This document shows, in pieces, positions 4,654 through 46,058 of a stretch of 62,941 bases of DNA. The notes beneath the pieces are model-generated. The model was not told where the DNA came from and searched no databases. It saw nothing but the letters and a program-made list of their open reading frames with translations. This DNA comes from a virus. Lineage: Duplodnaviria > Caudoviricetes. The stretch covers positions 1 to 62,941 of IMG/VR virus record IMGVR_UViG_3300030098_002385; one strand, written 5' to 3'. Position 1 is the stretch's first letter. Every line of letters begins with the position of its first letter. Made by a program: the position numbers and the translations under genes.

Positions 4654-4654
4654 T

Positions 4655-5392
4655 ATGAAGAAGTTATTAATATTATTATTATTTGTATTTGGTTATGGAT
4701 TTGCTCAAACAAATTGTGAAGATTGTGTGGAACAAGGTGGATTTTATTGTGGAGATGATACTTCTAATTGGACTCAGTATAGTCCTAATGGTTGCGTTCC
4801 TAATGGCCTTAATGGGCTTTACTATCTTAATGATGGGTGGGAAGATTGTGTGGACGCTTCAGATGAGCAAGACGCGGTACCTACAACGTTTGAGGAATGC
4901 GCTGAACCAGTTGAGGAATGTGACACGGTCTATGTAGATGTTCCTGTTTATATATATGAAACAATCTTCCAAACAGATACTATATATGATATAGAATATA
5001 TAACTCAAATTGTGATAGACACAGTAGAGGTAGAAACATTTGTTCCTGAATATATATACATAACAGACACACTAACTATATATGAAGATGTATTAGACAC
5101 TTTATTCATTGATGTTATAGAATATGTAGATGTGTTTGTTTTTGATACGATAGTACAAATAGAAACTGAATATGTAGAATTTTTTACTACAGACACTATA
5201 ATAGAGTATGTAGAAATTATAAACACAGAGTATTTAGATTGTGATACAGGCCTTCCTTGTACATCTAATCTACCTGATTTATTAAATCAATCAAAAGCAG
5301 ATAACAGAATTTATAACTTGTTGGGGCAAGCAATAAAAGAGCCAGAGGGACTTTATATCCAAGACGGTGTTGTTAAATATAAAATAGATTAA
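4655..5392 (+). CDS. Secreted acidic protein with LDLa-like motif, DT-repeat stalk and T9SS-like C-terminal signal
   Basis: Signal peptide ...GYGFA/Q; NDGWEDCVDASDE; repeated DT(V/I/L); C-terminal IYNLLGQAIKEPEGLYIQDGVVKY. Confidence 0.55.
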   Translation: MKKLLILLLFVFGYGFAQTNCEDCVEQGGFYCGDDTSNWTQYSPNGCVPNGLNGLYYLNDGWEDCVDASDEQDAVPTTFEECAEPVEECDTVYVDVPVYIYETIFQTDTIYDIEYITQIVIDTVEVETFVPEYIYITDTLTIYEDVLDTLFIDVIEYVDVFVFDTIVQIETEYVEFFTTDTIIEYVEIINTEYLDCDTGLPCTSNLPDLLNQSKADNRIYNLLGQAIKEPEGLYIQDGVVKYKID

Positions 5393-7317: not shown

Positions 7318-7581
7318 ATGTCTGTATATTATACTTCAAATATAGACCCAATACAAATAGAGGGGGTAAGTTTTGGAGAGGTTACTATAACACTATCTGT
7401 AACAAAGCCAAGTATAAATGTAAAAATTCCTTCGTATATTAGTAATACAAAAGTTACTAATAGAACTTGTATATATGTAGATAGTCAAAAGCCTGTTATA
7501 CTAGACAATATAAAATCTGTGTCTGCAACCAATAGCGCGGAGGTTACATTACAATTAAAAACTAAACTTTTAAACGCATGA
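7318..7581 (+). CDS. Hypothetical protein
   Basis: Likely start ATG 7318 just after the previous stop; ATGA overlap with the endolysin gene. Confidence 0.55.
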   Translation: MSVYYTSNIDPIQIEGVSFGEVTITLSVTKPSINVKIPSYISNTKVTNRTCIYVDSQKPVILDNIKSVSATNSAEVTLQLKTKLLNA

Positions 7582-23948: not shown

Positions 23949-23956
23949 TAGTTTTG
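23949..23956 (+). promoter_or_regulatory. -7 element TAGTTTTG
   Basis: TAnnTTTG 4 nt before ATG 23961. Confidence 0.6.
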
Positions 23957-23960
23957 TAGA

Positions 23961-24311
23961 ATGGAAAAATATGTATATTTCAGAACTGTATCTGACGTGG
24001 CTGATGATGATGACCAAACCTCTTCTTGTTTATTTCCTTTAAGTAGTTTTATGGGTGGTTATACTGTAACCGCAAATTTGGTAGTATTACATTTTAAATG
24101 TATGCACGACTTTAGAACAAATTCTGCTTCTAGTAGGGATAATGTGGTATTAACTACAACAAGTGGTTCAGCTGGCTCTGTGTTTGAATCTATTATGAAA
24201 GAGTTTTCTACAGGTGAAAATTATTTTATAGAGATAGCAGATGATGTAAGTGGTAAATATACTACATCAGGAATTAGTAATGTTTTATCAATAACTGTTC
24301 AAATAGTTTAA
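23961..24311 (+). CDS. Hypothetical protein, paralog family C
   Basis: MEKY..F...PLSSF.G...LHF...KEFSTGE. Confidence 0.65.
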   Translation: MEKYVYFRTVSDVADDDDQTSSCLFPLSSFMGGYTVTANLVVLHFKCMHDFRTNSASSRDNVVLTTTSGSAGSVFESIMKEFSTGENYFIEIADDVSGKYTTSGISNVLSITVQIV

Positions 24312-26551: not shown

Positions 26552-26559
26552 TATCTTTG
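26552..26559 (+). promoter_or_regulatory. -7 element TATCTTTG
   Basis: 4 nt before ATG 26564. Confidence 0.55.
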
Positions 26560-26563
26560 AAGA

Positions 26564-26857
26564 ATGTTAGAGCAAAAAACCAAATACGGTCGTATAAACA
26601 AATCTTTTAAAGGTGATTTATACCACGAAACTTTTTTTAAAAACTTTGAATCTATTCCAAAAAAAGAGGAAAAGATAGTAATGAATTTAATAGATAAAGG
26701 TTATAAAATAGAAGATAAAAAAATATTTTATGTAGGTGGAGGGCAATATCAGGGAGTAGAAACATTTTTAAATTACGACACAGGTGATTATGTTTCAGAA
26801 AAATACACTTATATAGAGCATGGGGTTTGGAAATTAAAATTTAAAATAAAAAAATAA
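26564..26857 (+). CDS. Hypothetical protein
   Basis: 97 aa; TAATG overlap with next gene. Confidence 0.65.
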   Translation: MLEQKTKYGRINKSFKGDLYHETFFKNFESIPKKEEKIVMNLIDKGYKIEDKKIFYVGGGQYQGVETFLNYDTGDYVSEKYTYIEHGVWKLKFKIKK

Positions 26858-30547: not shown

Positions 30548-32839
30548 ATGCCGTACACTAATTTTCCTAGGCAACTGCTTAGCGACGAAGAAAAAACAAA
30601 AGAATGGTGTGAGCAAAACTTAGATGCTATGGCACCTTATATTGCTCAATACAATAACAATCTATATATAAACGATAGATTTAAAGATATTAGAAATTAT
30701 CAAGCTTATCACGGTCACTTTGACCCAAAAGACTATGAGCATATTACTGACCAGTATGGAACACCTTTCCCTGCTAGAATGACCAACTATAATATTATAG
30801 CTCCTAAGATTGATTTATTAACAAGTGAAGAATTGCGTAGACCTTTAGAAACTAAAGTAAGTTCTATAAACAAATCTGCTGTTAATAGAAAAAAAGACGC
30901 TAAGGTTTCTATGGTTATGGAACAAATGTTAGGTGATATAAAAAAGGAAATAAACGAAACTATGGGAATGGATATCACGCAAGATAATGTTGATTTTGAT
31001 ATTCCAGACGACATAGAAACTTACATGAGATATACTTACAAAGAGGCAATAGAAGTTGTTGCTGAAAGTGGTATAGAGTATTTGAAAGAAAAATACAGAT
31101 GGAAAGATTTATTTAAAAATGGATTTAGAGACTTTCTTGTATTAGGTAAAGTTTTTTATAAAATAGATGTTAAGAATGGAGACCCTCATGTAAGGCGTGT
31201 TGACCCAAGAAACATAGCTTTTGATTCTTCTATAGAGAGTGATTATATTGATGAATCACAATGGGTGGTAGAACAAAGATGGTTAAGTGTTAATGAAATA
31301 CTAGACGAGTTTGGAGATGAGTTAACAAAAGAAGATGTTATGGAACTTGAGAATATGAGACAAATATCTTCAGGTAGTGAATTAGCTCATTATAACACAA
31401 GTATAGAATGGTTAAACTATGACGCTTCTACTGGCGTAAGAATAAGGCTTATACAAGGAGAATGGAAATCTATAAGAGCTATAAGGTTTAAAGTTTCTGA
31501 AAATAAATATGACCCAGATAATCCTTTTAGAAAAGTTGTTAATGATTCTTATAGACCAAGAAAAGGAGAAACTATAGAAACTAAATATGTAGATGATATT
31601 TGGGAAGGAACTAAAATAGGTGGTAGAATTACAACTAGATGTAGACGAAGACCAAACCAAGTAAGGTCTGTAGATGATGCAGGCTCTACTCCACTTTCTT
31701 ATGTTGGTTGTACTCACAATATGTCTGCAGGTAGAATTACAAGTTTAGTAGATGTTCTTAAACACATACAAACATTATACAATGTTGTAATGTATCATAT
31801 AGAACTTACGCTATCAAGAGCTGGTGGTAAAGCTGTGGTATATGATGTTTCTCAAATGCCTTCTAATATAGGTATGGATATGCAGACAGTATTATATCAC
31901 ATAAAAAATGATGGTATTATACCTATAAACTCTAGAGATGAAGGTCAAGACACAGCAAGGTTTAATCAATTCCAGCAAGTAGACTTTACTTTATCAAACT
32001 CAGTTCAACAATTAGTTAATTTAAAATTAATGTTAGAACAAACAGCTGGTCAGGTATGTGGTATATCACCACAAAGAGAAGGTGCTGTTGCTCAATACGA
32101 AGCTGTGGGTAATGTACAAAGAACTGTTATGCAGTCTAACTTAGTTACAGAAAATTGGTTCTTTCAACACTCTGAAGTTAAAAAGAGAGTTATCGAAAGA
32201 GTGTGTGGTTTAATGAAAATATGTTGGGCTCAAGGCAAAAGACTTGGATATGTATTAGGAGATGGCGCTTTTAAATTATTAGATATATTACCAGATATAG
32301 CTTTAAATGACTATGGTGTGTATATTAATCAAGGCGCTAAAGACGACGCTATTAAACAAGCTGTTACACAATTATCTCAAGCTGCACTACAAAGTGGTAG
32401 TATTACCTTATTAGATGTTATTAAAGTTTTAAAAGCTGATAGTCTTTCTGAAGCTGAACATGTTCTTGAGAATGGTATTAAAGAAATGCAGTCACAAGCA
32501 AAAGCTGCACAAGAACAACAACAATCTATATTACAAGCTCAAGCAGAACAAGAGCAAACTAAGATGCAACACGAAACTCAATTAAAACAAATGGATTCAG
32601 AAGCAAGGCTAAAAGTTGCTAAAGAAAACACAAGAGCTAAAATTGAGGTAGCTAATATACAAGCTGATTTAGAAGCTAATATGGTTAGTGATAGACTAAA
32701 AGGCGCTATACAAAGAGATGCTGCAAAATCTGAATATGATAAAACTGTTCGGGCAGATAAAATGAAAATGGAAGAAAAGAAAATGAAAGAAGATAGAGAT
32801 GAGAAAAGAAAAGATAGATTGGCAAAAACAAAAAAATAA
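30548..32839 (+). CDS. Portal protein
   Basis: Follows terL; YNIIAPKIDLL, GISPQREG; long C-terminal coiled coil. Confidence 0.85.
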   Translation: MPYTNFPRQLLSDEEKTKEWCEQNLDAMAPYIAQYNNNLYINDRFKDIRNYQAYHGHFDPKDYEHITDQYGTPFPARMTNYNIIAPKIDLLTSEELRRPLETKVSSINKSAVNRKKDAKVSMVMEQMLGDIKKEINETMGMDITQDNVDFDIPDDIETYMRYTYKEAIEVVAESGIEYLKEKYRWKDLFKNGFRDFLVLGKVFYKIDVKNGDPHVRRVDPRNIAFDSSIESDYIDESQWVVEQRWLSVNEILDEFGDELTKEDVMELENMRQISSGSELAHYNTSIEWLNYDASTGVRIRLIQGEWKSIRAIRFKVSENKYDPDNPFRKVVNDSYRPRKGETIETKYVDDIWEGTKIGGRITTRCRRRPNQVRSVDDAGSTPLSYVGCTHNMSAGRITSLVDVLKHIQTLYNVVMYHIELTLSRAGGKAVVYDVSQMPSNIGMDMQTVLYHIKNDGIIPINSRDEGQDTARFNQFQQVDFTLSNSVQQLVNLKLMLEQTAGQVCGISPQREGAVAQYEAVGNVQRTVMQSNLVTENWFFQHSEVKKRVIERVCGLMKICWAQGKRLGYVLGDGAFKLLDILPDIALNDYGVYINQGAKDDAIKQAVTQLSQAALQSGSITLLDVIKVLKADSLSEAEHVLENGIKEMQSQAKAAQEQQQSILQAQAEQEQTKMQHETQLKQMDSEARLKVAKENTRAKIEVANIQADLEANMVSDRLKGAIQRDAAKSEYDKTVRADKMKMEEKKMKEDRDEKRKDRLAKTKK

Positions 32840-32845
32840 ATTAAC

Positions 32846-32853
32846 TATCTTTG
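32846..32853 (+). promoter_or_regulatory. -7 element TATCTTTG for the capsid module
   Basis: Intergenic, 27 nt before ATG 32881. Confidence 0.6.
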
Positions 32854-32880
32854 TACAAAGCAAAGAGCAAAAATAAAATT

Positions 32881-33894
32881 ATGAGTGAAAAAGAAAAATC
32901 AGGTGAAGACCTAATTGAACAAGCACAAGATACTGCTGTTCAAGAAGAACAAAAAAATAAGGAAGAGATTCCTGCATTTGACCCAAAAGCGTTTACAAAC
33001 GATGAAGAGGTTAAAACAGAAGAAACTGAAGAGGTAACTGAAGAAACCGAAGCCTCTGAAGAAACAACAGAAGAGGGTGAAGAGGTTGACGAAGATGGTT
33101 TTGAGTGGGGTAGTGTAGAAAATGAACAAAAAGAAGCAAAGCCAGAGGAGGAAGATTGGGACCCAGCTCCAAAGCAAGAGGAGAAAAAAGAGTCTATTGA
33201 AGAGGCTGTTTATGATTGGGAGGCATTAGGAAAAGAGTTTGGTGTACAGGCTAAAAATGAACAAGAGTTTAAACAAGCTATAAATAAAGCTATTAAAACT
33301 CCTGCTCCAGTTAATGACACTATACAAAACTTACAAGATTATCTTAAGCTAGATGATAATTCACTAGTTAAAAGTGATTTAGAAGCTTCTGGTTTAGAAA
33401 AAGAAGAAGTTCAAGATACTCTTGATAGATTAAGTGACTCTGGGTTGTTAAAGAGAGAGGCTATAATGATTAGAAAAAATTTACAAAATTATATTGTAAA
33501 TGAAAGAGATAAACTAAGACATAAGCAAGCTCAACAAAGACAACAAGAAGAACAAGCAAACTTAAACACAAGAAGGTCTTTGCAAACATATATTAAAGGT
33601 AAAGAAGACTTTTTTGGAGGAAAAGTGAAAACAAAGGATAAGAAAGAATTATATAACTACATAACTTCTGGAGATTTTGCCGAAGAGGTGTATAGCGATG
33701 TGGCCAATGTTGCCGACGCTGCCTTCTTGTGGAAATACAAGGACAAAATTTTTAAGATGTTACGTGGTCAAGGAATGGAAAAAGGCAAAGCCTCAGTACT
33801 TAATAAGATTACTAATCCCGACCTTGGTAGAAGAAGTCAACATGTTGATGTCAAGAAAAAATCTGGCTTTGACCCTGTTGAGTTCATGAAGTGA
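32881..33894 (+). CDS. Putative scaffolding protein
   Basis: Very acidic N-terminus and helical C-terminus; between portal and capsid genes. Confidence 0.65.
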   Translation: MSEKEKSGEDLIEQAQDTAVQEEQKNKEEIPAFDPKAFTNDEEVKTEETEEVTEETEASEETTEEGEEVDEDGFEWGSVENEQKEAKPEEEDWDPAPKQEEKKESIEEAVYDWEALGKEFGVQAKNEQEFKQAINKAIKTPAPVNDTIQNLQDYLKLDDNSLVKSDLEASGLEKEEVQDTLDRLSDSGLLKREAIMIRKNLQNYIVNERDKLRHKQAQQRQQEEQANLNTRRSLQTYIKGKEDFFGGKVKTKDKKELYNYITSGDFAEEVYSDVANVADAAFLWKYKDKIFKMLRGQGMEKGKASVLNKITNPDLGRRSQHVDVKKKSGFDPVEFMK

Positions 33895-33970
33895 TAAATA
33901 AAAATGCGATGCTATTTTATTTGTTACAATAAATTAAATTATTGTAAAACAAATTAAAAACATTTAAAAA

Positions 33971-35380
33971 ATGGCAAAAATATATACGGGTACGTATGGA
34001 AAAGACACTACTGATGAAACGGCGTTAGTGACCAACCTACTAAAATACCCAGAAATAGGCAAGAAGCTTATTCAACAATATCCACGTTTCTCTTTAACAT
34101 ATTTATTAGAAGCTGCAGGTAGAAATGCTGCAGAAAAAATCATTGGCGATTACGCTTTTGAATGGAAAATGATGGGAAGATACAGAAAGCCAGCTATAGT
34201 TGAAACTGGTGAAACTTTATCTGCTGCTGCTGGTGCTACAGAAACATTTGTTGTTGACCACGACCCAACTAATGGTATTCATGGTGATAACTTAAATGTT
34301 AATGACGTAGTTCGTTTTTCTGATGGAACTACTGCGCTTGTAACTAATGTTCCTTCTATTACATCTTCTGATACTACTAACACTATTACAGTAAGAGCTA
34401 TTGACGCTTTATCTGTTACTTTAGTTGCTGGTGATGTAGTTGGTACTATTGGTAGTGCTTTTAATCAAGGTTCATTAGCTTCTGAGGTTGGACAAAACTA
34501 TGCTTACCCAGATACATACAAGAACTGGTTAACTCTATCTCGTAAGAAAACAAAAATTATGGGTTCTGATTTAACTGATGTTACTTGGATTGAGTCTAAT
34601 GGTCACAGATTATGGTACTTTACTAAGGAACAACAAATGACTGACCAATTTATGTATGAGCTTGAAGCTCAAAGATGGTATGGAAAGAAAAGTATGTCTA
34701 ACGCTTCTGATTACCCTGGTGATACTGGAGCTGCTACTGCTGGACTTCCAATCATGGGTGATGGTATACTAGCACAAATTGATTCTTCTAACCAAGCTAC
34801 TTATACAGCTGGTGCATTAACAGAAGAAGATATCGTTAACTTTATAGGAACACTTTCTAAAAATGCTTTATCTGCTGAAGGTAATGTATTTACAGTATTT
34901 ACAGGAACACAAGGAAGAATAGATTTCCACAGAGCTATGAAAGATTTATTAGCTACTGTAGGTTCTGGAGCTCCTATGTTTGCTGGTAAAGGTGGTGGTT
35001 CTGTAGAATTAGGCGCTAACTTTACTGAGTACAATATTTTAGGAAACAAAATGATTCTATCTTACTGTCCAGTATTTGACGACCCTAACTTACATAATTC
35101 TATTTCTTCTACATTTGATTCTTCAAATGAGTCAGGAAAAATGGTATTTTTAGATATGGGAATGCAAAATGGCGTTGCTAATGTTGAGTTAATCGCTAAA
35201 GGCGCAGAAGGTTTTAACAGAAGTTTTGTTAAAAAATATGTACCTGGTATGGTAAATCCTTACGATTATAATTCAATGATGGCTGCTAATGGTGATGATT
35301 TCTTTGAGTGTCAAATTCTTTCAGAATCTGGTATTATCTTAAGAAACCCATTATCTTGTGGTATTCTTTCGAATGCGTAA
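33971..35380 (+). CDS. Major capsid protein
   Basis: 469 aa, position after scaffold; GDGILAQI, VFTGTQG, GIILRNP as in crAss-like capsids. Confidence 0.85.
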   Translation: MAKIYTGTYGKDTTDETALVTNLLKYPEIGKKLIQQYPRFSLTYLLEAAGRNAAEKIIGDYAFEWKMMGRYRKPAIVETGETLSAAAGATETFVVDHDPTNGIHGDNLNVNDVVRFSDGTTALVTNVPSITSSDTTNTITVRAIDALSVTLVAGDVVGTIGSAFNQGSLASEVGQNYAYPDTYKNWLTLSRKKTKIMGSDLTDVTWIESNGHRLWYFTKEQQMTDQFMYELEAQRWYGKKSMSNASDYPGDTGAATAGLPIMGDGILAQIDSSNQATYTAGALTEEDIVNFIGTLSKNALSAEGNVFTVFTGTQGRIDFHRAMKDLLATVGSGAPMFAGKGGGSVELGANFTEYNILGNKMILSYCPVFDDPNLHNSISSTFDSSNESGKMVFLDMGMQNGVANVELIAKGAEGFNRSFVKKYVPGMVNPYDYNSMMAANGDDFFECQILSESGIILRNPLSCGILSNA

Positions 35381-35391
35381 ATTAATTTATA

Positions 35392-35422
35392 ATGGGGTGG
35401 GTAACTGCCCCATTTAACCTTT
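35392..35422 (+). terminator. Hairpin after the capsid gene
   Basis: atggggtgg-gtaa-ctgccccat then ttaaccttt. Confidence 0.55.
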
Positions 35423-35435
35423 AAAATATAAAAAA

Positions 35436-35741
35436 ATGAATGCAAGATTTATATATGCACGAACAGCAGCTAATGACGCAGCTTGTGTAAACATAGCTAA
35501 TATAAAGACAGTCGAAATTGATTCCGACAATTCTTTACATATTACGTTTACAAAATCAGATGGCGGAGCTGGAGAAATCCAATTTGCGTTAGGAACTGTT
35601 GACGATGCAACTGAAAAAAGCGTTGTGTTAGATGTTACTAGAGCTATAGCTGGACAAAACTCAGCAGTAATCGTATTGAAAGATGATGTTACTGGAGATG
35701 GTATGTCTGTATTAAGCTCAGTTGATACTATAACAACGTAA
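35436..35741 (+). CDS. Putative capsid-associated protein (distant family C member)
   Basis: Immediately after the capsid gene; RFIY.R...LHITF...V...VIVL.DDV.G resembles 23961. Confidence 0.55.
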   Translation: MNARFIYARTAANDAACVNIANIKTVEIDSDNSLHITFTKSDGGAGEIQFALGTVDDATEKSVVLDVTRAIAGQNSAVIVLKDDVTGDGMSVLSSVDTITT

Positions 35742-35753
35742 TAAATGATTAAT

Positions 35754-35789
35754 GAAGGGAGAGTGTAACACTTAACTCTCCTTTTATTT
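35754..35789 (+). terminator. Intrinsic terminator-like hairpin
   Basis: aagggagagt...actctcctt then ttattt. Confidence 0.5.
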
Positions 35790-35830
35790 AAAAAATAATT
35801 AAGTGTTTAACTTTTTAAAATAAATAACAA

Positions 35831-36340
35831 ATGAATGAAATGTTTAACGTAAGACGTTCTCAAGATGGAGACCAAGTCTTAAAATCCTTAAACGGACAAT
35901 TTCAATCAGTAATACCAGTTACAACAGCAACTTATAATGTAGAAGACCACCAGTCTGGTACTATTTTTACATTAGATAGAGCTGCAGGAATTGCTGTTAC
36001 TTTACCAGCTGCAGAGGTAGGTTTAGTATATGAATTTTATATTACTTCTACTTTTACAGGTACGTGTACAATTACTGCTGATTCAAGCGCTGATACTTAC
36101 ACAGGTATGATAACTAAGATTGATAAAGATGAAAAAGGTTCTGTAGTAGCATTAAATGAAGACATAGATACAACTTGTTTTGATATACCAGCTGCTGCGG
36201 ATTATATATTAACATTAGACGCAGATACAGATGGTAGATTCCTAGGGGGACATCTAAAATTTGTATGTGTTTCTGATTCTAAGTGGAGTATTTCTGGAAA
36301 TCTTTTTGGAGACGGTACAGGTTCTCACATGTTTAGTTAA
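35831..36340 (+). CDS. Putative head fibre/decoration protein
   Basis: SGTIFTL...VTLPAA..GL.Y.F pattern seen in fibre modules. Confidence 0.55.
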   Translation: MNEMFNVRRSQDGDQVLKSLNGQFQSVIPVTTATYNVEDHQSGTIFTLDRAAGIAVTLPAAEVGLVYEFYITSTFTGTCTITADSSADTYTGMITKIDKDEKGSVVALNEDIDTTCFDIPAAADYILTLDADTDGRFLGGHLKFVCVSDSKWSISGNLFGDGTGSHMFS

Positions 36341-36353
36341 TAACTAATTTATA

Positions 36354-36384
36354 TACTTATCCCCTCTTCGGAGGGGGTGGGTAT
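36354..36384 (+). other. Stable hairpin with UUCG tetraloop
   Basis: acttatcccctc-ttcg-gagggggtgggt. Confidence 0.6.
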
Positions 36385-36390
36385 TAAGCT

Positions 36391-36540
36391 ATGGGAAAAA
36401 TAATATTAAAATATAACCCTAAGACAGGGAAAGTAGAGGAACACTCCGAGTCTACACCAAAAGGTGGGAGTAATATATTGATAAAAAAAAGCGGGCCAGG
36501 TTTGAAATGGACTCACAAACACGGACAAAAATTAAAATAA
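36391..36540 (+). CDS. Small basic protein (49 aa, not in ORF track)
   Basis: MGKIILKYNPKTGKVEE...WTHKHGQKLK; fills the intergenic gap. Confidence 0.55.
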   Translation: MGKIILKYNPKTGKVEEHSESTPKGGSNILIKKSGPGLKWTHKHGQKLK

Positions 36541-36546
36541 TAAATT

Positions 36547-37260
36547 ATGAGCAAAAATGAACATTTGGTATTTTACAGAAGTAAAAACCCTACAAAAATG
36601 AGTTATGTTTTCTTTGGAAACTATAAAGATAAAACTGGTAGAATGCATACATACACTGATGTAAATGGTGTAGCACACAGAGGATTTCCAAACACTCAGC
36701 CTGTAATAAGGTTAAATATTAATTTAGAACACCATAAACTAGTTGATGAGTTCTTAATGGACCACCCATTAGTTTTAAATGGTTCTTGGTTGAGAGATGA
36801 TGCTATTATAAGACAAGAGCAAGAAGCTAATGCAATTATGACTTCTGCTAATGCTGTAATGGAAGCTGCTAAATTAAACATGAAAGAAGTAAGAGACTTA
36901 TCTAGACTACTTGGATTAAACCTAGACTCTAGAGATGATATCTTAAAAGCACATGTTTTAAAAATAGCTGCTGAGCAACCAGAAAACTTTATGGCACTAT
37001 GGTTTGATGATGATAGACATTATAGACTGTTTGTTATGGAGGCACAAGAAAATGGTGTTATTAAGTGGGAAAAAGATACATTTAAGTATGGCTCACAAGT
37101 TGTAGGTATTTCTGAAGACCAAGTAATAAAATGGTTAAAAGACAATAAGGATATATATGCTTTATTAAAGTCACAAATGAGTGGTAATGGTAAAGTAGAG
37201 ATGGACTTAGTTGAGCAAAAGGAGGAAGCTACAACAAAAAAAACAAGTAAAAAAAAGTAG
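36547..37260 (+). CDS. Conserved morphogenesis-region protein
   Basis: 237 aa between capsid and tail genes. Confidence 0.65.
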   Translation: MSKNEHLVFYRSKNPTKMSYVFFGNYKDKTGRMHTYTDVNGVAHRGFPNTQPVIRLNINLEHHKLVDEFLMDHPLVLNGSWLRDDAIIRQEQEANAIMTSANAVMEAAKLNMKEVRDLSRLLGLNLDSRDDILKAHVLKIAAEQPENFMALWFDDDRHYRLFVMEAQENGVIKWEKDTFKYGSQVVGISEDQVIKWLKDNKDIYALLKSQMSGNGKVEMDLVEQKEEATTKKTSKKK

Positions 37261-37266
37261 TAATAC

Positions 37267-38211
37267 ATGGCAATAATTGAAAGTGTAAACGATTTATATA
37301 ATAGAGTTAGAACTATTTTAGATAAAGGGGATACTCCTTGGATGTCTAATGAAGAAATAGATGACTTTATTTCCATGGCTGGAAGTGAGTTTACACAGGA
37401 GAGAGTTGATAAGTTTGGAGCTACACAGAGATTAAGAGATGATTTAGGTGCATTTGTTAGAACTTTAACTTATTTTGATGCTTACAATTCAAGTCTTTTT
37501 CAAGAAGCGTTTCTGTTACAAAACGCAGCAATGGACGGGGGTCAAATGGACTGGGGTCCTATAAATTGGTTAGGTGGCCTTTTTAATCCATCTCCAACAG
37601 GTTTTGGCTCTGAAGTTTGGTCTATAACATATAACGCGCATCCAATGAGCAAACTATCTTGTGACATGAGGTTCACTGGTCCTTATTTTGCATTAGGGGC
37701 AGATAGTTCTGTTGAATGGAATAATTTTATTGATGAAGGAGATAGGCCAGACGTAAATACTGTAATATCAATTGATATACATTATTTTAATGTTCAAAAT
37801 GTAAATACTCCAACTATTTCAACTAATGGCCCTGGTTTTATTAAAAAGGTTAAAACAGAGCCTGTTAAGATTATTAGCATTGATGATTATCAGGGCTCTA
37901 TAAATGACCCTTTTAACGCTCCTAACTCAGGTAATCGTGTTGCTATAAGAACAGGTGATTATTACAACTTTCTTCCAGATTTAGATTTATCTCCATTTGG
38001 ACTTAATTTAGCTGCTGGAGGAGAAAGTAATTTTGGTATGATTGTTTTTAATTATGTTTCGGGAAAATGTACATCTGAAAATATTGTTACACATATGCCA
38101 AAAAGTAGTGTAGAAGAAATTTGCCAAATTGCTGCTAGAAAAATACTTGGAACAACAGCTGATGAAAGATATACCGTTGGTAACAACGAGATAAATCAGC
38201 TTAATATATAA
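37267..38211 (+). CDS. Putative tail/neck ring protein
   Basis: LDK......EEIDDF...A, DPFNAP, EEICQIA patterns. Confidence 0.55.
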   Translation: MAIIESVNDLYNRVRTILDKGDTPWMSNEEIDDFISMAGSEFTQERVDKFGATQRLRDDLGAFVRTLTYFDAYNSSLFQEAFLLQNAAMDGGQMDWGPINWLGGLFNPSPTGFGSEVWSITYNAHPMSKLSCDMRFTGPYFALGADSSVEWNNFIDEGDRPDVNTVISIDIHYFNVQNVNTPTISTNGPGFIKKVKTEPVKIISIDDYQGSINDPFNAPNSGNRVAIRTGDYYNFLPDLDLSPFGLNLAAGGESNFGMIVFNYVSGKCTSENIVTHMPKSSVEEICQIAARKILGTTADERYTVGNNEINQLNI

Positions 38212-38224
38212 AAAATTTGCTCCC

Positions 38225-38272
38225 TGCTTTGTGATGAGAGGTTAGTGTTCGCCCTGCCTCTTGTCTAAAGCA
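38225..38272 (+). promoter_or_regulatory. Intergenic RNA hairpin upstream of ATG 38288
   Basis: tgcttt-g-tgatgagagg pairs with cctcttgtc-t-aaagca. Confidence 0.5.
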
Positions 38273-38287
38273 AAAAAAATAAAAAAT

Positions 38288-38998
38288 ATGACACTAAACG
38301 AAATAGCATATAACATTAAAAACATACTAGAAGGGGGTGCTGCTACATTAGATTCTAACATATCTATTAGACAAATACAAGCTATGATACATTATCATAG
38401 AGCGCAATTACTTTTAAAGTATACAGATGGTGGTAGGTATATATCAAGCGCTATAACTTCAAAAATAAATGAAGCTATAGACGAGAATGGATTTGGTTTT
38501 ATTAATATTCCTCCATTATTAGGATTCTCAAACAATAGAGCAATAGTTTCTATTGAAGTAGAAATACAAGGAGAAAAACAATCTGTTCCACTATGTTATG
38601 GTCCAGATAAAGAATTTTTCTTTGAATCTAGATTTGGGCCCTCTACAGAAAGAATTATAGCTGTTATAGAAGATGATGTAGATGAGTCTGAAGACAGACG
38701 TATATATTTTTATTCGGGACAAAATGAAACCTTAACCGATGGGGTTGTAAGGGTAAGGGCAGTTTTATCACAACCACAAGACGGTCCTAATGGCTATCCT
38801 ATACCAGATGAGTTAATACCTACTTTAACGCAAACTGTTTTAGCAAAAGAGTTTAACATGATGTTAACTGTAGGTAAAGATTATACAAACAACACTGTAG
38901 ATGATAATATACCAGGCATAGCAGCTGCAAATATAAAGCGTGGAATGCAGGCCGCACCTTCAGCTAAAGCTAGGTCAACAAGGGCAAAAACAAGATAG
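38288..38998 (+). CDS. Putative tail ring protein
   Basis: MTLNEIAYNI, ISIRQI...I.Y.RA.L, YPIP. Confidence 0.55.
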   Translation: MTLNEIAYNIKNILEGGAATLDSNISIRQIQAMIHYHRAQLLLKYTDGGRYISSAITSKINEAIDENGFGFINIPPLLGFSNNRAIVSIEVEIQGEKQSVPLCYGPDKEFFFESRFGPSTERIIAVIEDDVDESEDRRIYFYSGQNETLTDGVVRVRAVLSQPQDGPNGYPIPDELIPTLTQTVLAKEFNMMLTVGKDYTNNTVDDNIPGIAAANIKRGMQAAPSAKARSTRAKTR

Positions 38999-39426: not shown

Positions 39427-40083
39427 ATGAACGGACAAGCTGGAAAACGTGTAAGTGTAAAACGAGTAGTTGCTAATGTTATTAGGAACATGGACATACC
39501 TGATGCTTCTAGAAACTTTAATGCCTTTGCGGAATGGGCCTTTGAAGCAGAAAGAAAAATAGGAAGTTATAAAACTTTTGTTAAAAAAACAGAAACATTA
39601 ACTATAACAAATAAACAAGCAGCTTTACCTGATGATTTTTTAAGTATAATAGATGTTAAAAAAGGTGGTAGTAATAATAATGATTATTTAGAACAAAGCT
39701 CTGCTACTTTTCCTTCTGATGTAGATAAACAAAATATGTTTTATTTTACAGAGGATACTTTAAATGTTTCTACAAATGACATTGGTTCTGTAACTATAGT
39801 TTATTACGCCGTAGATACAGATGACGAAGGATACCCTACGATTGCAGCAAACCATGAAGATGCTGTATCTGCATATTTAATGTACAAGTATAAGGCGAGA
39901 GATTATTGGAACGGTAAGTTACAAAGATATATTTATGTTGATTTAGAAAGAAATTGGTCTAGGTTGTGCGCCCAAGCAAGAGGAAATGACAATATGCCTA
40001 GTCCATCAGAAATGAAAAAAGCAGCTCAAATATGGAACACTTTGATTCCTATCAAGTCTAACAATGGATTACTTAATGTATAA
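39427..40083 (+). CDS. Putative tail tubular protein
   Basis: EWAFEA..KIG, LPDDF, D.EGYP.I; precedes the stabilisation protein. Confidence 0.6.
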   Translation: MNGQAGKRVSVKRVVANVIRNMDIPDASRNFNAFAEWAFEAERKIGSYKTFVKKTETLTITNKQAALPDDFLSIIDVKKGGSNNNDYLEQSSATFPSDVDKQNMFYFTEDTLNVSTNDIGSVTIVYYAVDTDDEGYPTIAANHEDAVSAYLMYKYKARDYWNGKLQRYIYVDLERNWSRLCAQARGNDNMPSPSEMKKAAQIWNTLIPIKSNNGLLNV

Positions 40084-43000
40084 TGCCAACAAAAGGAAAA
40101 CCAAATACGTTTTTTAAAGGAATGAAGTCTGACTTAGAGAAATCTATGCAGTCAAAAGATTCTTATAGATATGCAAAAAATGCAAGGGTTACTAGTTTAG
40201 ATGGTGACAATGTAAGTGTACAACCCTATCCTAGTGATAGATTAGCTTTAACATTTAGAGGTGAATCTAGTTTTGTAAATGGAGTTCAAACTCTTTCTTA
40301 TACACAGGCTTGGACACAAGGTGAGACTGTAATAAATACTATAGGTGATGTTTTAAATGAAATGAATTATCAGTGGCCACCACAATATTCAAGTTTAGAA
40401 GATTTATGGGGGCCTATTGAAATACCAGGTGAGTTTACACAATTTATAGCTGGTAATGACAATCCAGTTAGTGTTACAATAGAGTTAGTAACAGTAGATG
40501 GTAATACTATAGAAATTACAGAAGACATTACTACTGCTTATCTTTTAACAAACCAAATGAATGTTCCTTTTGATGTAGATAATTTGGTTGCTGGTATTAT
40601 AAATGAATCTCAAAATGGTATTTTAGCAACAGCTACAGTAAATGGAAATATAGGAAATTCTCAAACAACAACAAATTGGGTGTTTATAAACACAGAAGAT
40701 TCTTCAGATTATGTATCTTCCTTTTCTGTTACCGTGACTGGAACGGGTAGTTACTCTATAGCTAATCAAGATTTAATGCAACAAGGTTTAATAGCCTCTT
40801 TACCTCCAGTGCCAGTTCCTACAGGTAATGGCATTGAAGAAATTATTGCTTATAACTTAGCTTTAGCGTTTCAACAAGCATTAGTAACATCAATAGTGAA
40901 TGCTTTAACAGATTATTATAACACTTTAGCGCAAACACCAATTAATTCAACTGTAATTAATGGCGCAGAATTATCACCAACTGGATTAAGTGTTTTTGAA
41001 CAAGTTGCAGAAAGTATTGGTTTTTCACCAAGTCAACCAGGAATACAAGTGTTGGGAACATATAGTTTTTCTGACCAATTAATTATATTAGCTAAATGGC
41101 CTTTAATGGGAGCTCTACAAGCTGAGGCTGGAAGTCCAATAGCATGTGATATGGTTATAAAAGTAAGACAGGCAGCAGATGGAACTTTAAATGGAAATGG
41201 ACTAGATGGTTTTGGGGACTTTATACCCTTTGATGAACTAGGTACTTTGTATACTATTTATTTTACGGGTAACTTAGAGTTTACATTAGGAAAAAAAATA
41301 AAAATAACAGGTTCTGAAGAATCTGGAAAAACAAGGAGAATATATTTTACAGATGGATTGTTTCCCTTAAAAACTATGAATGTTGGACTAGACCCAATAC
41401 TATACACACCTTATTTTAATACACCTGAGTATTTTAATATTTTTGCACCAGCTGTGTTTGCGCCTACAAAAGTAACTGGATTTTTAGAAGGCGGTAATTT
41501 AAGCTCAAAGGCTTATTCTTATGGTTTTAAATATAAGACTGTAGATGGAAGAACTAGTAAGCTGTCGCCACTAAGTAATCCAGCAAGTTTACCTAAAACA
41601 TCCTCTTCTACTGAAGGGCCTTTTATAAAAGGAGCCAAGTCAGAAGAATCTACAGGAAAAACTATGACAGGTGAAATAAGAAACTTAGACACAAGGTATG
41701 CTAAAATACAATTAATATTTGTTCCTTATGAAAACAATGCTCCAGCTGGTCCTGGAATAATTTTTAATGAATACCCCGTACCTTCTGTAAATGATAATGA
41801 TGACGAGAATGTTGTATTTTGGAGTCACACAGGAACTGAAGAGCCAATAGGTGAGGTTCCATTGGCAGAGTTAAATGACAACCAAGTTAGTTGGGACACT
41901 TGTCAAGCTTTAGAAACTAAAGATAATAGATTATTTGTAGGTAATTTAAGTAACAGTATAGAAAGTATAGATACTGATTTTAGAGTTGTATCGTATAATA
42001 AAGAAAATCAACCCCATAATGTTGATACTGGAAACCCACATTTGTATAACGACTTATTATACTCTACAGCTGGAGTTATAGTTAATCCCGAAAACCAACA
42101 GGCCCTTCCTGTGGAGCAAATAACTGAGGCTTACCTAGGAGCATACGTTGATGAATATATTGTTGAAGGCACCAATTTTGTTCCTATGTTTAGATATATA
42201 AAGGGTCCTACAAATAATTCAGCTTTATACAATGGAGAGCTTTTAGGTGTTCAACAACAAAGAGGAATATTTGGGGCTCAAAGTAAAGGTTTTGACGAAC
42301 CTAATGATGATGGTGAGCTTGAGGGAATAAGAGTTACTTTTAGAATATTAAGTGAAGAATCTTCTGATGGCACATTTCCTATTGATTTAGATAGAGATTC
42401 TAGGTTAATTCAATCTAGTGGAATAAAAGCTTTACCTCCATACTATAATTTACCTGCAGGTCAAAATAATTATTATAATAACTATTCTAATCCTTTATAC
42501 AACTCAAACTATGTAGGGTATAGAAGAGGCGAGATATATAGATTTGGATTACTTTTTTATGATAAACTAGGCGCACCTATGTTTATAAAGCCTATAGGTG
42601 ACATTAGAATGCCAGAACACAGTGCAGAATATGTAACACCTATATATAACCCAACAAGTGAAAATGGGGAAATAACTGGATTTAAACATGAATGGCCGTA
42701 TTATTATCAAACAGCTAGAAGTGCTAAAGACCGTGGATTTCAAAATATTGGAGATTATATAAATAAAGAAGGTGTAAAAGGATGTGTTTTATATCCTTAT
42801 TTTGAGGTTAAACTATCTTCAGCAACAACTAGTAAAATAGGTGGATACTCTGTAGTTAGAGTTCCTAGAGATTCTATCAATAGAAGTATAGTTACTTCTG
42901 GTATATTTTCAAGAGCAATAGCTTATAAAAATGACAGCTTTGGTAATTCAGAGTTAGACGGTAAGTTGGGTAATAGCACATTTCCTTTGTGGACAGAGTT

Positions 43001-46000
43001 AAGACAAAAACAAGACTACAGAAGATTTAATGGGGAAGGTGATAACGCATCAAGGGTGTACACACTAGATTCTCCAGATGTGTGTAGTGATGGAGATTTT
43101 GTTTATAATTTCTCATCTTCTGATAGAATAAAACTTACAGAGTCAGGATTTTGTTTGAAACAAAATGTTCGTTTAATAGATGCAAATGGAGAAACTGATA
43201 CAGAAGGTATACAAAAGTTTTTATCTATAGATTTAGCTGACCATTTATACAACCCTTCAGATATAAATCAAAATTTACCAGCGTATACATTACAACCTAA
43301 ATCATTAAATTTGTTTTCATGTGTTGTAAGTAAAGACAAACTAAATAACAGCCCTGTTCAATTTAATGAACAAGAATACGAAACAGGAACTTGGAATTAT
43401 AAATTTAGTGATGACGCTCAAAACTATTATGACTTTGAAGATGATGGTATATTTCAGAATATTATTGGTAATGATTATAATAATTATGGATTTAGTTCTC
43501 AGTACGACCTTGTTAGTAATGATGATAATGTAGAAAAACATGTAGGGTATTTTACTAAATACTATTCTAAAAGAATATCTTGTTACCCCCAATATGTTAT
43601 GAGAGATACAACAGTTGGAACAGGCGGAGAATTCAATGACTCTGTGGGAACTGGCGTTGGATTTAATATAGCAAGCCAACAACAGGCTTTACGATTACCT
43701 TATGTGAACCTATCTAATCCAGACGCACCTAATAGTTTTAATATAAACAACCCAAATATATCAGAGTTTTTTGCTTTTAATAATTCAGAGGGTTTACAGC
43801 CAGGTCAATTTTTTGAAACTAAAATACATTATGCTCAAATATTAAATCCAGAACAAGAAATAAATTCAGGTAATATACCAGGAAATTCTCCTAGTTTTAG
43901 AAATGCTCATCACTTTCATGAGTTGTACCCACCAACACAAACAAACTTTGATAAAAGACAAGCTAATGACCAAGAGAGTCAAAACGATTATTTTCAAAAA
44001 GCCAATAGAGCATATGCTCACAATTCTAAAACTATTGGTATTGTATTAGAAAAACCAGGAGGAATGCCTGTGGTTAGACAGAACTTAGCAGCAAATAATT
44101 ATTCAGAAGGAATTACAAGAAGAATAGGTGTATCAAAAGCTGGTGGTGAAGGTAATCCAGGCGGTAATTTTTCACCAGAGGTTACTATCGCGTCAATAGT
44201 AAGGGCTCAAAGTAAAGAAACTATGTATGGCGGATTTACAGAAGGGGATTTCTCTAGAAATATATTTCAATCAACAGGACAATTTAGACCTGTAGTATTT
44301 AATTTTCAAAACCCTGGTGATGCAGTTGGACAAAACAATGTTGGTGAAAATGGTAATGCTGTATTTGGTGGAGATACTTACATTGGTTATCACAAATTAA
44401 AGAAAACATTTAAACCTAGTTCAGGCACAAACGGAGAAGATGAGTCTTGTGTGTTATTTGCCTCTATGGTTCCTTTGGAAACTAATTTTAATTTAGAACT
44501 TAGACATGGTTGGAATTACTCTAATAATAGTGATTCTATACCAAGGTTTATAGAAGATGAATATTTGTATAATGAATCTTTTGATTCTGAAAACAATGGA
44601 TTGGCTTATAAAACAAAACCTATAGATTTTGAAGAAGTTAATCACTGGCCATCAATGATAGCTTTTTCTGAACAAAAAATACCAGGTGAGGTTGATGATA
44701 ATTATTCAATTTTTCCTGTAAACCAAATAAAAGATTTAGATTACGAGAAAGGTCCTATTACGCAAATGTTTATGTTATCTAATGAAATGTACGCTTTGCA
44801 GTATTATGGAACTAGTAGGTTAAGTATTAACCCTAGAGTGTTAATTCAAGCAGAAGATGGTAATGCTATACAAGCGCAAACTGGAACTGATAATATATTA
44901 GAAAGATATGACTATATAAGTGAAGTGTATGGTTCGCAACATTTTCATGGATTAGCTGTTTCTGATAAAGCAGCGTATTTTTACGATGATGATAATTGTA
45001 AGTTTTTAAGACTAGGTAGAGGCGAAAAGGGTAAGTTTGGCGTAATGTCTTTAGGTGAAAATTCTTTTATGCAAAATTATTTTAATCAAAATAAAAATAG
45101 AACTTTAAATGATAACCCTTTGACCATTAGAACTTATACAAATGAAGCGCTACCTCCTTCTCCAACTTATGATATAAATAAACTACTTATATATCAAGGT
45201 ATTCAAGAAGAAGATTTAGGTGGCGTATCTATAGGATTTGACCCTGAACATTCAGAGGTTTTATTAACAACTATGTTTAGTGATAAAGGAGTGTACTTAC
45301 CGCCAGAAACTATTGTGTTTAATGAAAACTTAGGCGCTTTTACTAGTTTTATTTCTAAAGCAGCAGGACATTATTTTAATCATCATGGTAGACTTTACAA
45401 TGTGTATAATAAATACTCAACTAATGTTGATGACGCAAGCTCTTTGAATAATGGATTAGATGAAATATACATGTCAAATGGATATGAAGAATTTCCTAAC
45501 TCTGAATTAGACTCTTTTCCTGCAAAGTTTTTAAACTTTGGAGATGTAGATTATTATATATGGGAACAAGATACTGAACAACAAGGTGTTCTTCCTGTAT
45601 ATAAAGAGCCCTTTGAGATTGAAATGGTTATAAATGATGCCCCAACTGAAAGTAAAATATTTGACAAAATACAGTTATCAATGAACTCTGAAACACTTGA
45701 AGGAACGAGATATATTTATTTTCGTAAATTTGCATTTGAGGGTTCTGCAAATACAGCACCAATCATTCAAAATGATACAAACATATTGGGAGAAAATTAT
45801 TCTAGTATAGATAATTTAGAACCAGGTGGAAATAGAAATTGGTACACTGTAAGGGATAATTTACATTTTGCACCAATGAGAAGTTTGAATGGCTTAGAAG
45901 TTAATCAAGGGGGTAAAACAAGGGGTACGTACGCTACTGTAAGAATGACAATGGGGTGGGCAATAGATAATGAACATCCAAGTGGGTACGATAGAATTAA

Positions 46001-46058
46001 AAATGAAAAGTTTAATATATTCTCCGCAGTTCCTTTCTTTAGGGCTTCAAGAATTTAA
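40083..46058 (+). CDS. Tail stabilisation protein (large, beta-rich)
   Basis: NTFFKGMKSD, Y.YA.NAR, RRIYFTDG, KDNRLF.GN, GYRRGEIYRFG, GGDTYI, F.E..GAFTSF. Confidence 0.7.
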   Translation: MPTKGKPNTFFKGMKSDLEKSMQSKDSYRYAKNARVTSLDGDNVSVQPYPSDRLALTFRGESSFVNGVQTLSYTQAWTQGETVINTIGDVLNEMNYQWPPQYSSLEDLWGPIEIPGEFTQFIAGNDNPVSVTIELVTVDGNTIEITEDITTAYLLTNQMNVPFDVDNLVAGIINESQNGILATATVNGNIGNSQTTTNWVFINTEDSSDYVSSFSVTVTGTGSYSIANQDLMQQGLIASLPPVPVPTGNGIEEIIAYNLALAFQQALVTSIVNALTDYYNTLAQTPINSTVINGAELSPTGLSVFEQVAESIGFSPSQPGIQVLGTYSFSDQLIILAKWPLMGALQAEAGSPIACDMVIKVRQAADGTLNGNGLDGFGDFIPFDELGTLYTIYFTGNLEFTLGKKIKITGSEESGKTRRIYFTDGLFPLKTMNVGLDPILYTPYFNTPEYFNIFAPAVFAPTKVTGFLEGGNLSSKAYSYGFKYKTVDGRTSKLSPLSNPASLPKTSSSTEGPFIKGAKSEESTGKTMTGEIRNLDTRYAKIQLIFVPYENNAPAGPGIIFNEYPVPSVNDNDDENVVFWSHTGTEEPIGEVPLAELNDNQVSWDTCQALETKDNRLFVGNLSNSIESIDTDFRVVSYNKENQPHNVDTGNPHLYNDLLYSTAGVIVNPENQQALPVEQITEAYLGAYVDEYIVEGTNFVPMFRYIKGPTNNSALYNGELLGVQQQRGIFGAQSKGFDEPNDDGELEGIRVTFRILSEESSDGTFPIDLDRDSRLIQSSGIKALPPYYNLPAGQNNYYNNYSNPLYNSNYVGYRRGEIYRFGLLFYDKLGAPMFIKPIGDIRMPEHSAEYVTPIYNPTSENGEITGFKHEWPYYYQTARSAKDRGFQNIGDYINKEGVKGCVLYPYFEVKLSSATTSKIGGYSVVRVPRDSINRSIVTSGIFSRAIAYKNDSFGNSELDGKLGNSTFPLWTELRQKQDYRRFNGEGDNASRVYTLDSPDVCSDGDFVYNFSSSDRIKLTESGFCLKQNVRLIDANGETDTEGIQKFLSIDLADHLYNPSDINQNLPAYTLQPKSLNLFSCVVSKDKLNNSPVQFNEQEYETGTWNYKFSDDAQNYYDFEDDGIFQNIIGNDYNNYGFSSQYDLVSNDDNVEKHVGYFTKYYSKRISCYPQYVMRDTTVGTGGEFNDSVGTGVGFNIASQQQALRLPYVNLSNPDAPNSFNINNPNISEFFAFNNSEGLQPGQFFETKIHYAQILNPEQEINSGNIPGNSPSFRNAHHFHELYPPTQTNFDKRQANDQESQNDYFQKANRAYAHNSKTIGIVLEKPGGMPVVRQNLAANNYSEGITRRIGVSKAGGEGNPGGNFSPEVTIASIVRAQSKETMYGGFTEGDFSRNIFQSTGQFRPVVFNFQNPGDAVGQNNVGENGNAVFGGDTYIGYHKLKKTFKPSSGTNGEDESCVLFASMVPLETNFNLELRHGWNYSNNSDSIPRFIEDEYLYNESFDSENNGLAYKTKPIDFEEVNHWPSMIAFSEQKIPGEVDDNYSIFPVNQIKDLDYEKGPITQMFMLSNEMYALQYYGTSRLSINPRVLIQAEDGNAIQAQTGTDNILERYDYISEVYGSQHFHGLAVSDKAAYFYDDDNCKFLRLGRGEKGKFGVMSLGENSFMQNYFNQNKNRTLNDNPLTIRTYTNEALPPSPTYDINKLLIYQGIQEEDLGGVSIGFDPEHSEVLLTTMFSDKGVYLPPETIVFNENLGAFTSFISKAAGHYFNHHGRLYNVYNKYSTNVDDASSLNNGLDEIYMSNGYEEFPNSELDSFPAKFLNFGDVDYYIWEQDTEQQGVLPVYKEPFEIEMVINDAPTESKIFDKIQLSMNSETLEGTRYIYFRKFAFEGSANTAPIIQNDTNILGENYSSIDNLEPGGNRNWYTVRDNLHFAPMRSLNGLEVNQGGKTRGTYATVRMTMGWAIDNEHPSGYDRIKNEKFNIFSAVPFFRASRI
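45725..45732 (+). promoter_or_regulatory. Possible internal -7 element TAAATTTG
   Basis: ttcgTAAATTTGca, ~340 nt upstream of ATG 46070; inside a CDS. Confidence 0.35.

Follow-up and report, generated by a model that had tools for sequence, protein, structure and literature searches.

Co-varying complementary sequences at the two ends of a phage head-gene block suggest pairing between its 5' and 3' untranslated regions

Two short intergenic sites, 5.4 kb apart on the viral contig IMGVR_UViG_3300030098_002385 (62,941 bases, G+C 32.6%, completeness estimate 95%; hereafter the window, taken at its full length), are complementary to each other, and this complementarity is maintained among the relatives of the phage. 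The first, site A, lies in the leader of a block of head genes, and the second, site B, is a pyrimidine box in the 3' untranslated region (UTR) of the last head gene, with a hairpin on its 3' side. The explanation that we favour, with a confidence slightly above even, is a functional RNA-RNA pairing of the type known from the icaR messenger RNA (mRNA) of Staphylococcus aureus. Either the 3' UTR itself or an antisense fragment derived from it would bind the 5' UTR across a 5.4-kb polycistronic operon, thus masking the ribosome-loading leader of the first gene.

Within the window, 15 of the 17 positions of sites A and B are complementary, the two exceptions being neighbouring A.C oppositions in the center, and the coordinates are precisely those given in an original prediction that had been made from the letters of the window alone. 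Its claim that both sites are intergenic is borne out by the boundaries of the open reading frames (ORFs): A is enclosed between the portal stop codon at 32839 and the next ATG at 32881, and B between the stop codon of an ORF of 314 amino acids (aa) at 38211 and the next ATG at 38288. The reverse complement of site B is the only other match to the 17-mer of A in the window at up to 3 mismatches. As a base count, 15 of 17 is not unusual, since 33 such 17-mer pairs (about 14 distinct places) are present in 5,262 nt of intergenic DNA. The energy of the duplex is an outlier: the two intergenic regions pair at -29.5 kcal/mol as compared to -11.2 +/- 2.6 for shuffled sequences (minimum -22.0), a value that none of 1000 shuffles reaches. 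Out of 1,563 tiles, site B gives the A region its strongest duplex by energy, and among 45 regions upstream of ORFs it is the A leader that scores highest with the box. When all 20,911 tiles of the window are considered, A comes second for the box (-19.6), behind a coding site at 7348 (-20.4), and this ranking speaks against the pairing. With an unexceptional base count, an outlying energy and a coding site ahead of A, a single genome could therefore not settle the matter. The part of A that is predicted to be transcribed (32858-32871) forms 5 + 7 pairs with the box around the two A.C oppositions, and the window leader taken from its predicted start reaches -14.3 kcal/mol (shuffle z -3.8). In predicted co-folds these 5 + 7 pairs sit beside an intact hairpin core, at -27.5 kcal/mol versus -16.1 for the separate RNAs.

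The decisive information comes from relatives of the window, and it depends on their distance. Close relatives (11 unique sequences with a capsid identity of at least 82%) simply conserve both sites and are uninformative. Among them positions 32858-32871 are conserved and 32872-32880 variable, and one C to T change retains a G.U pair. At 53-58% capsid identity, the box is unchanged and the leader keeps AAAGCA-type stretches of 7-9 pairs (z -1.3 to -2.9). At this stage coincidence looked more likely, a conclusion now superseded by more distant clades. Clades at 79%, 66% and 50-55% identity then came from scanning metagenomes with an alignment of capsid proteins. Altogether the capsid protein retrieved 142 loci, of which 62 hold both junctions; together with the window and locus L142, these yield 37 unique leader/box pairs. 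The leaders of the added clades carry the complement of the box core, a few bases from the predicted transcript start (Table 1). Complementarity is thus preserved in relatives, in forms that vary by clade and with changes on both sides. The box flank changes from T to A in L255/L264 and L291 while the opposite leader base changes from A to T, and in clades where a GC precedes the T run, the leaders end in ...AAAAAGC. L286 is the sole lineage in which the box itself is different, and its leader matches the altered box. In the window's clade and in the clades with GGGAG-type leaders, complementarity sets in at positions +1 to +3 of the predicted RNA.

Table 1. Leader and box types among relatives of the window (DNA letters; the box is written as its reverse complement)
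Locus	Leader	Box, reverse complement	Pairing
L255/L264	GGGAGTAATA	GGGAGCAATA	9 Watson-Crick + 1 G.U
L275	TAGGGAACAAAAA	CAGGGAGCAAAAA	11 Watson-Crick + 1 G.U, 1 mismatch
L291	ATAGGGAATAAATA	ACAGGGAGCAAATA	11 Watson-Crick + 2 G.U, 1 mismatch
L245	GGAGCAAAAAA	AGAGCAAAAAA	10 Watson-Crick + 1 G.U
L238			18 Watson-Crick + 2 G.U, 2 mismatches, 2 gaps, over the whole box length
L286	AAGGAGTAACAAA	AAGGAGAAACAAA	12 of 13 positions

Family-wide energy tests, in which the box was located by sequence pattern, agree with these alignments. The duplex energy lies below that of the pair's own shuffles in 37 of 37 cases (z -0.9 to -5.0), with p < 0.05 in 26. Controls with a reversed box and with a reversed leader are both beaten by all 37 pairs (mean -11.9 versus -4.8 kcal/mol), and likewise by 16/16 leader types. 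Across 18 representatives, cognate pairs have an energy of -11.24 as against -10.04 +/- 0.35 for permuted pairs, and a fraction of only 0.0006 of 20,000 permutations attains the cognate value. The leader is the best ORF-upstream region of its own locus for 16 of the 37 pairs, and at most one region is better for 24. At least two Watson-Crick pair types occur in 14 of 25 box columns, in an alignment that was fitted to the complementarity. The corresponding pair table holds 403 Watson-Crick pairs, 30 G.U pairs and 33 mismatches (27 of them A.C), a tally inflated by the fitting. The sequences are moreover related, so that all of these counts are inflated and do not represent independent events; the reversed-sequence and permutation controls are independent of the fitting.

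These controls bear directly on a first competing explanation, that the two elements are independent of each other and complementary by chance. The leader would then hold a purine-rich, Shine-Dalgarno-like or start-proximal motif serving promoter escape or translation, and the box would serve termination or protein binding, with no pairing between them. Purine-rich motifs in leaders and pyrimidine-rich ones in 3' UTRs are both common, matches of 15 in 17 abound in this A+T-rich DNA, the box is invariant whatever the leader does, and the pairing is weak in 11 of the 37 unique pairs (shuffle p of at least 0.05 in 11). Such independence accounts poorly for the flanks outside the purine/pyrimidine core, which co-vary in L255, L291, L286 and the GC-flank clades, as well as for the advantage of cognate over swapped pairs and for reversed sequences losing in every instance. 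We consider it unlikely.

Site A starts 2 nt downstream of a perfect copy of the -7 box of Bacteroidota sigma-A promoters, TAnnTTTG (here TATCTTTG), which agrees with its original description as a leader located just after a promoter. The box is found less than 50 nt from the ATG of the scaffold-position gene, the first gene of the head block, in 103 of 103 related loci. According to the available parts of two reports, it occupies positions -12 to -5 in Flavobacterium psychrophilum (PMC9723704; also PMC7366714). By this rule the head-gene mRNA would start at 32858, so that its extreme 5' end would comprise 14 of site A's 17 bases (32858-32871). The predicted start thus lies inside the paired segment and not downstream of it. 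The resulting 5' UTR has the length given as the commonest for Bacteroides in the available part of one of these reports (PMC7366714). It is short, A-rich and without a Shine-Dalgarno sequence. Counted from the ATG, the predicted pairing extends from -23 to -10 in the window, and in the L036/L050 type it reaches the ATG; its target would be the 5'-terminal part of the leader, 10-27 nt ahead of the start codon. Near -33, where a TTTG element is expected, reading by eye finds only ttgg at 32819-32822, 23 nt ahead of the -7 box; this element is also reported as not found in Flavobacterium, at least in the part of that paper that is available (PMC7366714). Elsewhere in the window, the genes at 4655, 23961 and 26564 display the arrangement TAnnTTTG-N4-ATG (4643-4657, 23949-23963 and 26552-26566), which fits a start 5 nt past the G of the box. 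By the same -12 to -5 rule, these genes are predicted to have leaderless mRNAs.

On the other side of the head genes, the box is among the most constant features of the family. Its core TTTGCTCCCTGCTT is invariant in 22 unique sequences, including relatives whose capsid proteins are only 53-58% identical to that of the window; in some clades there is one extra T inside the box or one altered flank base. The box pattern is found in 75 of 75 loci that hold the junction, in a single copy per locus, and most single-sequence folds leave it unpaired. Directly 3' of it, a hairpin is predicted in 22/22 unique sequences at -19.4 to -28.5 kcal/mol, with stems that are wholly different between clades (the window region 38213-38290 folds at a predicted -21.2 kcal/mol). 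Covariation was read from subgroup alignments: both sides have changed in 4 of 16 pairs among 7 sequences and in 4 of 13 among 11 sequences, and no pair is broken in either. A MAFFT alignment of all 22 box regions misaligned the hairpins, and RNAalifold gave no structure from it. The G.U pairs of the hairpin are compatible with RNA of the + strand only. In most relatives the hairpin is followed by a T run, which suggests an intrinsic terminator there. In the clades at 50-55% and 66% identity, a separate TAnnTTTG box is present between the hairpin and the tail ring gene, so that box and hairpin would form the true end of the head transcription unit in these phages. The T run and the new -7 box past the hairpin together make the pyrimidine box the last unpaired stretch of this predicted unit. 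The TAnnTTTG box ahead of the ring-gene ATG is seen in L255, L275, L278, L291, L295, L245 and L286, and it is only 4 nt away from the ATG in L255 and L286.

Searches for the box outside the family returned chance matches. Rfam 15 gives no match at gathering score in the whole window, and for 38100-38350 only chance-level hits far below the cut-offs. The 19-base box, searched in one genome each of 185,579 species, has 23 hits attributed to chance, and neither the hairpin nor the neighbouring genes accompany any of them. In viral contigs the 14-base box is swamped by chance hits, and among the matches listed only family members have the hairpin. Two other roles for the site were rejected. An antisense promoter was discarded because no TAnnTTTG is visible by eye upstream of the reverse complement of the box, and a small coding frame was discarded because a 1-nt indel inside the box shifts the frame between clades.

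The original prediction had gone further, proposing that site B overlaps the hairpin and that the two pairings are mutually exclusive. In the predicted fold of the window, the overlap is real for the outer 7 pairs of the hairpin (38225-38231/38266-38272), but the conserved core lies clear of the box. In the window, L003 and L018 the T run has been lost, and in its place the sequence taaagca lengthens the stem into the box; L004 and L008 do so in part. Leader and hairpin would then compete for the box in an RNA switch or a stem processed by RNase III, and the opening or cutting of the hairpin before the ring gene would couple head and tail expression. Positions 38225-38231 of the window can indeed pair with either 38266-38272 or 32856-32862. 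A longer imperfect duplex of 27 pairs (32840-32872/38215-38247, -29.5 kcal/mol) invades the 5' arm of the hairpin. There is also no -7 box between hairpin and ring gene in the window's clade, whose tail genes would therefore depend on read-through. The competition is limited to the few lineages that have the outer pairs, and is not a conserved feature. Furthermore, the extension into the hairpin arm uses 32840-32857, upstream of the predicted transcript start; it is seen only in the window's clade, where it shows no double change, and it is absent from distant clades (whole-region z +0.4 to -2.8). Even with the extended hairpin, co-folding is predicted to keep the local structure and to add only 7 intermolecular pairs. 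Coupling of head and tail genes is not general either, because in the 50-55% and 66% clades the ring gene is preceded by a promoter box of its own. This switch is accordingly given little credence.

An equally improbable proposal places the function in the DNA, with A, B and a further copy before the p237 homologue (see below) as either-orientation sites for one phage DNA-binding regulator and changing along with its specificity: a shared protein would equally predict co-variation blind to G.U versus A.C (30 and 27 are observed), and site A overlaps the predicted start point, operators being often located at such points, but site B belongs to a 3' UTR and has an RNA hairpin with strand-specific G.U pairs only a few bases away, the third copy has no promoter box nearby, and all copies are in transcribed leader or trailer RNA, predicted to be single-stranded, at fixed distances from start codons.

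The favoured RNA pairing can be put together as follows. The head-operon mRNA would be made from the host-type promoter directly after the portal gene, starting at about 32858. Its pairing partner would be the pyrimidine box that follows the last head gene in the 3' UTR, immediately 5' of the terminal hairpin of the operon, so that the mRNA would carry its own antisense element. This box could work in cis, within the full-length 5.4-kb mRNA, or else in trans, as part of a stable 3' fragment made of box and hairpin. By covering the first 10-20 nt of the leader, it would mask the ribosome-loading region and the 5' end of the scaffold-position gene. Initiation on this first gene would be lowered in hosts whose ribosomes load onto unstructured leaders with no Shine-Dalgarno pairing, and the 5' end would be buried. 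The outcome may be tuned translation of the first gene, mRNA decay, or both, as for the icaR 3' UTR in Staphylococcus. A more ambitious form of the cis option is possible but doubtful. Here the pairing would loop the whole 5.4-kb head mRNA, and only transcripts that reach the box would have their 5' end and first ribosome-loading site clamped, so that completion would feed back on the translation and decay of the scaffold-position gene. The p237 homologue would be included in some clades, and in the window's lineage the box would be shared with the ring-gene leader, linking head and tail expression.

Several observations weigh against the pairing. The start and the end of the transcript and the co-transcription of the genes are predictions, and the sites would have to meet across 5.4 kb of an mRNA that carries ribosomes. 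Between A and B there are two strong hairpins (about 35391-35414 and 36361-36376) that could end or process transcripts ahead of the box. The hairpin of the window itself has no T run, is followed by gtctaaagcaaaa and is not called by a terminator scan. None of the pairs of the 27-pair duplex (0/27) has a double change among the 11 close relatives, one of which, L012, carries an uncompensated G to A. Several of the 53-58% clades are down to 7-9 A/U-rich pairs, and A.C oppositions recur, both in the center of the duplex in the window's clade (two of them) and with the GGGAAC leaders elsewhere. Lastly, the box is near-invariant while the leader drifts, a degree of constraint that cannot be explained by its pairing with this one leader.

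Additional leaders face the same box. In the 50-52% clades, the head leader is sometimes outscored by that of the p237 homologue, which contains a second sense copy of the motif, (A/C)AGGGAGTA or ACAGGGAGTA..., 27-28 nt before the ATG of the p237 homologue and directly after the upstream stop codon, with no promoter box nearby (loci in Table 2). The hexamer AAAGCA is also found twice in the window, at 32857, where it opens site A, and at 38267 in the ring-gene leader; in the window's lineage, this ring-gene copy pairs with the box in the extended hairpin. The box therefore repeatedly faces gene leaders, and multiple leader partners may explain why it is more constrained than any single one of them. 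Within 7 kb, no perfect partner of the box recurs except for a conserved coding motif upstream of the portal gene. This stretch, gaagaagcaggNgag (L024:2116, L028:2496, L036:2501 and L032:1), is complementary to the box at -20 to -24 kcal/mol; since its third-codon positions vary freely, it was rejected as a partner and read as chance.

The closest precedent is icaR itself, in which the UCCCCUG motif of the 3' UTR pairs with that mRNA's own 5' UTR, blocks initiation and creates an RNase III substrate (PMC3868564, available part). The phage resembles it in the complementarity between 5' and 3' UTR and in the maintenance of this complementarity during evolution. In contrast, as far as the available part of that report describes it, icaR is a single-gene mRNA in which the Shine-Dalgarno sequence is the target. 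In the phage, a block of 6-7 genes over 5.4 kb is bracketed, the host group does not as a rule use Shine-Dalgarno pairing, and the 5'-terminal part of the leader would be targeted. The phage box also abuts a terminal hairpin, and the phage pairing is a prediction from sequence.

A second parallel is offered by small RNAs (sRNAs) derived from 3' UTRs, which are released from an mRNA end and have a conserved seed directly upstream of an intrinsic terminator. The phage has the same architecture, with a stop codon, a short, invariant and single-stranded stretch, a covarying terminator-type hairpin and a T run, and its box displays a seed-like invariance along with several complementary leaders. 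Unlike the partners of such sRNAs, the known partners of the box are leaders of the same operon and not distant genes. Both 5'- and 3'-UTR-derived sRNAs are mentioned for Bacteroides in the available part of one report (PMC7366714). Leader-trailer helices of ribosomal RNA (rRNA) operons, which bracket 16S and 23S rRNA and are cut by RNase III (PMC10250234, available part), are similar in that complementary segments kilobases apart on one transcript bracket a functional unit. Those helices, in that account, are long and continuous and serve processing, whereas the conserved part in the phage amounts to 7-20 interrupted pairs, and its long near-continuous duplex is not conserved among relatives. 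The perfect TAnnTTTG at A, the predicted 23-nt UTR and the hairpin with T run of most relatives are otherwise what is expected of Bacteroidota sigma-A promoters and terminators, as described in the available parts of PMC9723704 and PMC7366714. Unlike those of ordinary promoters and terminators, the flanks in the phage are mutually complementary and co-vary.

The cultured Flavobacterium phage Fpv2, a distant relative, has the same gene order and a -7 box 7 nt before its scaffold-position gene. It has a plain terminator after the head genes, with no box and almost no leader, and the gene past this terminator has no BLASTP similarity to the ring gene. Since Fpv2 is without the box, the pairing would be a feature of this uncultured marine family. 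In the limited collection of literature searched, no such element is described for crAss-like or other tailed phages.

The genes around the two sites place them on the phage genome (Table 2). With the portal, capsid and ring genes identified around them, sites A and B bracket the head-gene block, and B lies at the boundary between head and tail genes. The capsid protein of the window is 25-30% identical to those of crAss-like and Flavobacterium phages, its gene for the major head protein has 27-30% identity to crAss-like major head proteins (tblastn), and the portal and capsid genes match PHROG families. Together with the two crAss ring genes that follow site B, this evidence points to a crAss-like phage that is distant and marine. 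For the block's first gene, PHROG and Pfam searches return no match, and its position between the portal and capsid genes suggests a scaffold role.

Table 2. Positions of the sites and of the genes surrounding them (window coordinates, except for the last row)
Feature	Position	Strand	Remarks
Portal ORF	stop at 32839		PHROG match
Bacteroidota sigma-A type -7 promoter box TATCTTTG (TAnnTTTG)	32846-32853	+	Perfect match, directly 3' of portal stop codon
Site A	32855-32871	+	Starts 2 nt past TATCTTTG; 32858-32871 is the part predicted in RNA
Predicted head-operon 5' UTR, 23 nt	32858-32880	+	Start from -12 to -5 rule
First gene of block, 337 aa, acidic	32881-33894	+	ORF between portal and capsid genes
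Major head protein gene	33971-35380	+	PHROG 11589, E 5e-31
Last gene before box, 314 aa	37267-38211	+	Without family; highly variable among close relatives
Site B, conserved pyrimidine box	38216-38232	+	3' UTR, 5 nt past stop codon; core TTTGCTCCCTGCTT at 38216-38229
Conserved hairpin core	38233-38265	+	38233-38242 paired with 38256-38265; terminator-type in relatives
Lineage-specific 3' hairpin extension taaagca	38266-38272	+	Pairs with 38225-38231 of box; within tail ring gene leader
Tail ring protein 2 gene, first tail gene	38288-38998	+	Pfam PF25702 CrAss_Ring_2, E 5.5e-13
CrAss_Ring_1 gene	39427-40083		Pfam, E 1e-33; second gene downstream of ring protein 2 gene
Second sense copy of leader motif, before p237 homologue	L278:9832, L282:9703, L284:9749, L287:10471, L291:9761, L275:9790, L293:10128, L295:7429		Locus:position in relatives

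The interior of the block is less stable than its borders. The 314-aa gene is 26-90% identical across close relatives, with neighbouring genes at 80-100%. The 314-aa, 101-aa and 169-aa genes (37267-38211; 35436-36340) are 26-60% identical in many relatives in which the capsid and 237-aa genes are at 80-100%. Such patterns suggest that genes within the head block are exchanged in a mosaic fashion, with the conserved intergenic sites as limits. In several public marine DNA runs, contigs start or stop at 32842-32860 and about 38154-38317, as is to be expected when strains that occur together have short identical islands in common between variable genes. Among the 40 best-supported differences of four DNA runs (there are 988 further ones), none is at either site, from which nothing follows. 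Directly 3' of the capsid gene, a strong hairpin is present at 35391-35414; close relatives keep it with other stem sequences, and the 53-58% clades lack it. Its probable role is that of an attenuator or stabiliser within the head operon. A 6-bp G+C hairpin with a ttcg loop is located at 36361-36376, directly 3' of the 169-aa gene, and an ORF of 49 aa (36391-36540) lies between it and the 237-aa gene. Further downstream, the window has a 1,991-aa gene at 40083-46058 and an ORF of at least 3,712 codons (51805-62940) that runs off the contig end. Giant virion proteins are typical of crAss-like phages.

In bacteria, pairing between 5' and 3' UTRs is known from very few cases, all of them on short transcripts. 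If the pairing described here is true, a transcript could use its own two ends to set the dosage of structural genes at the RNA level. The hosts of this family initiate translation without Shine-Dalgarno pairing. The 14-nt box and its matching leader would make up a compact module for studying how leader accessibility governs translation in Bacteroidota. The box may also provide a sequence signature for the boundaries of head operons in metagenomic phage contigs.

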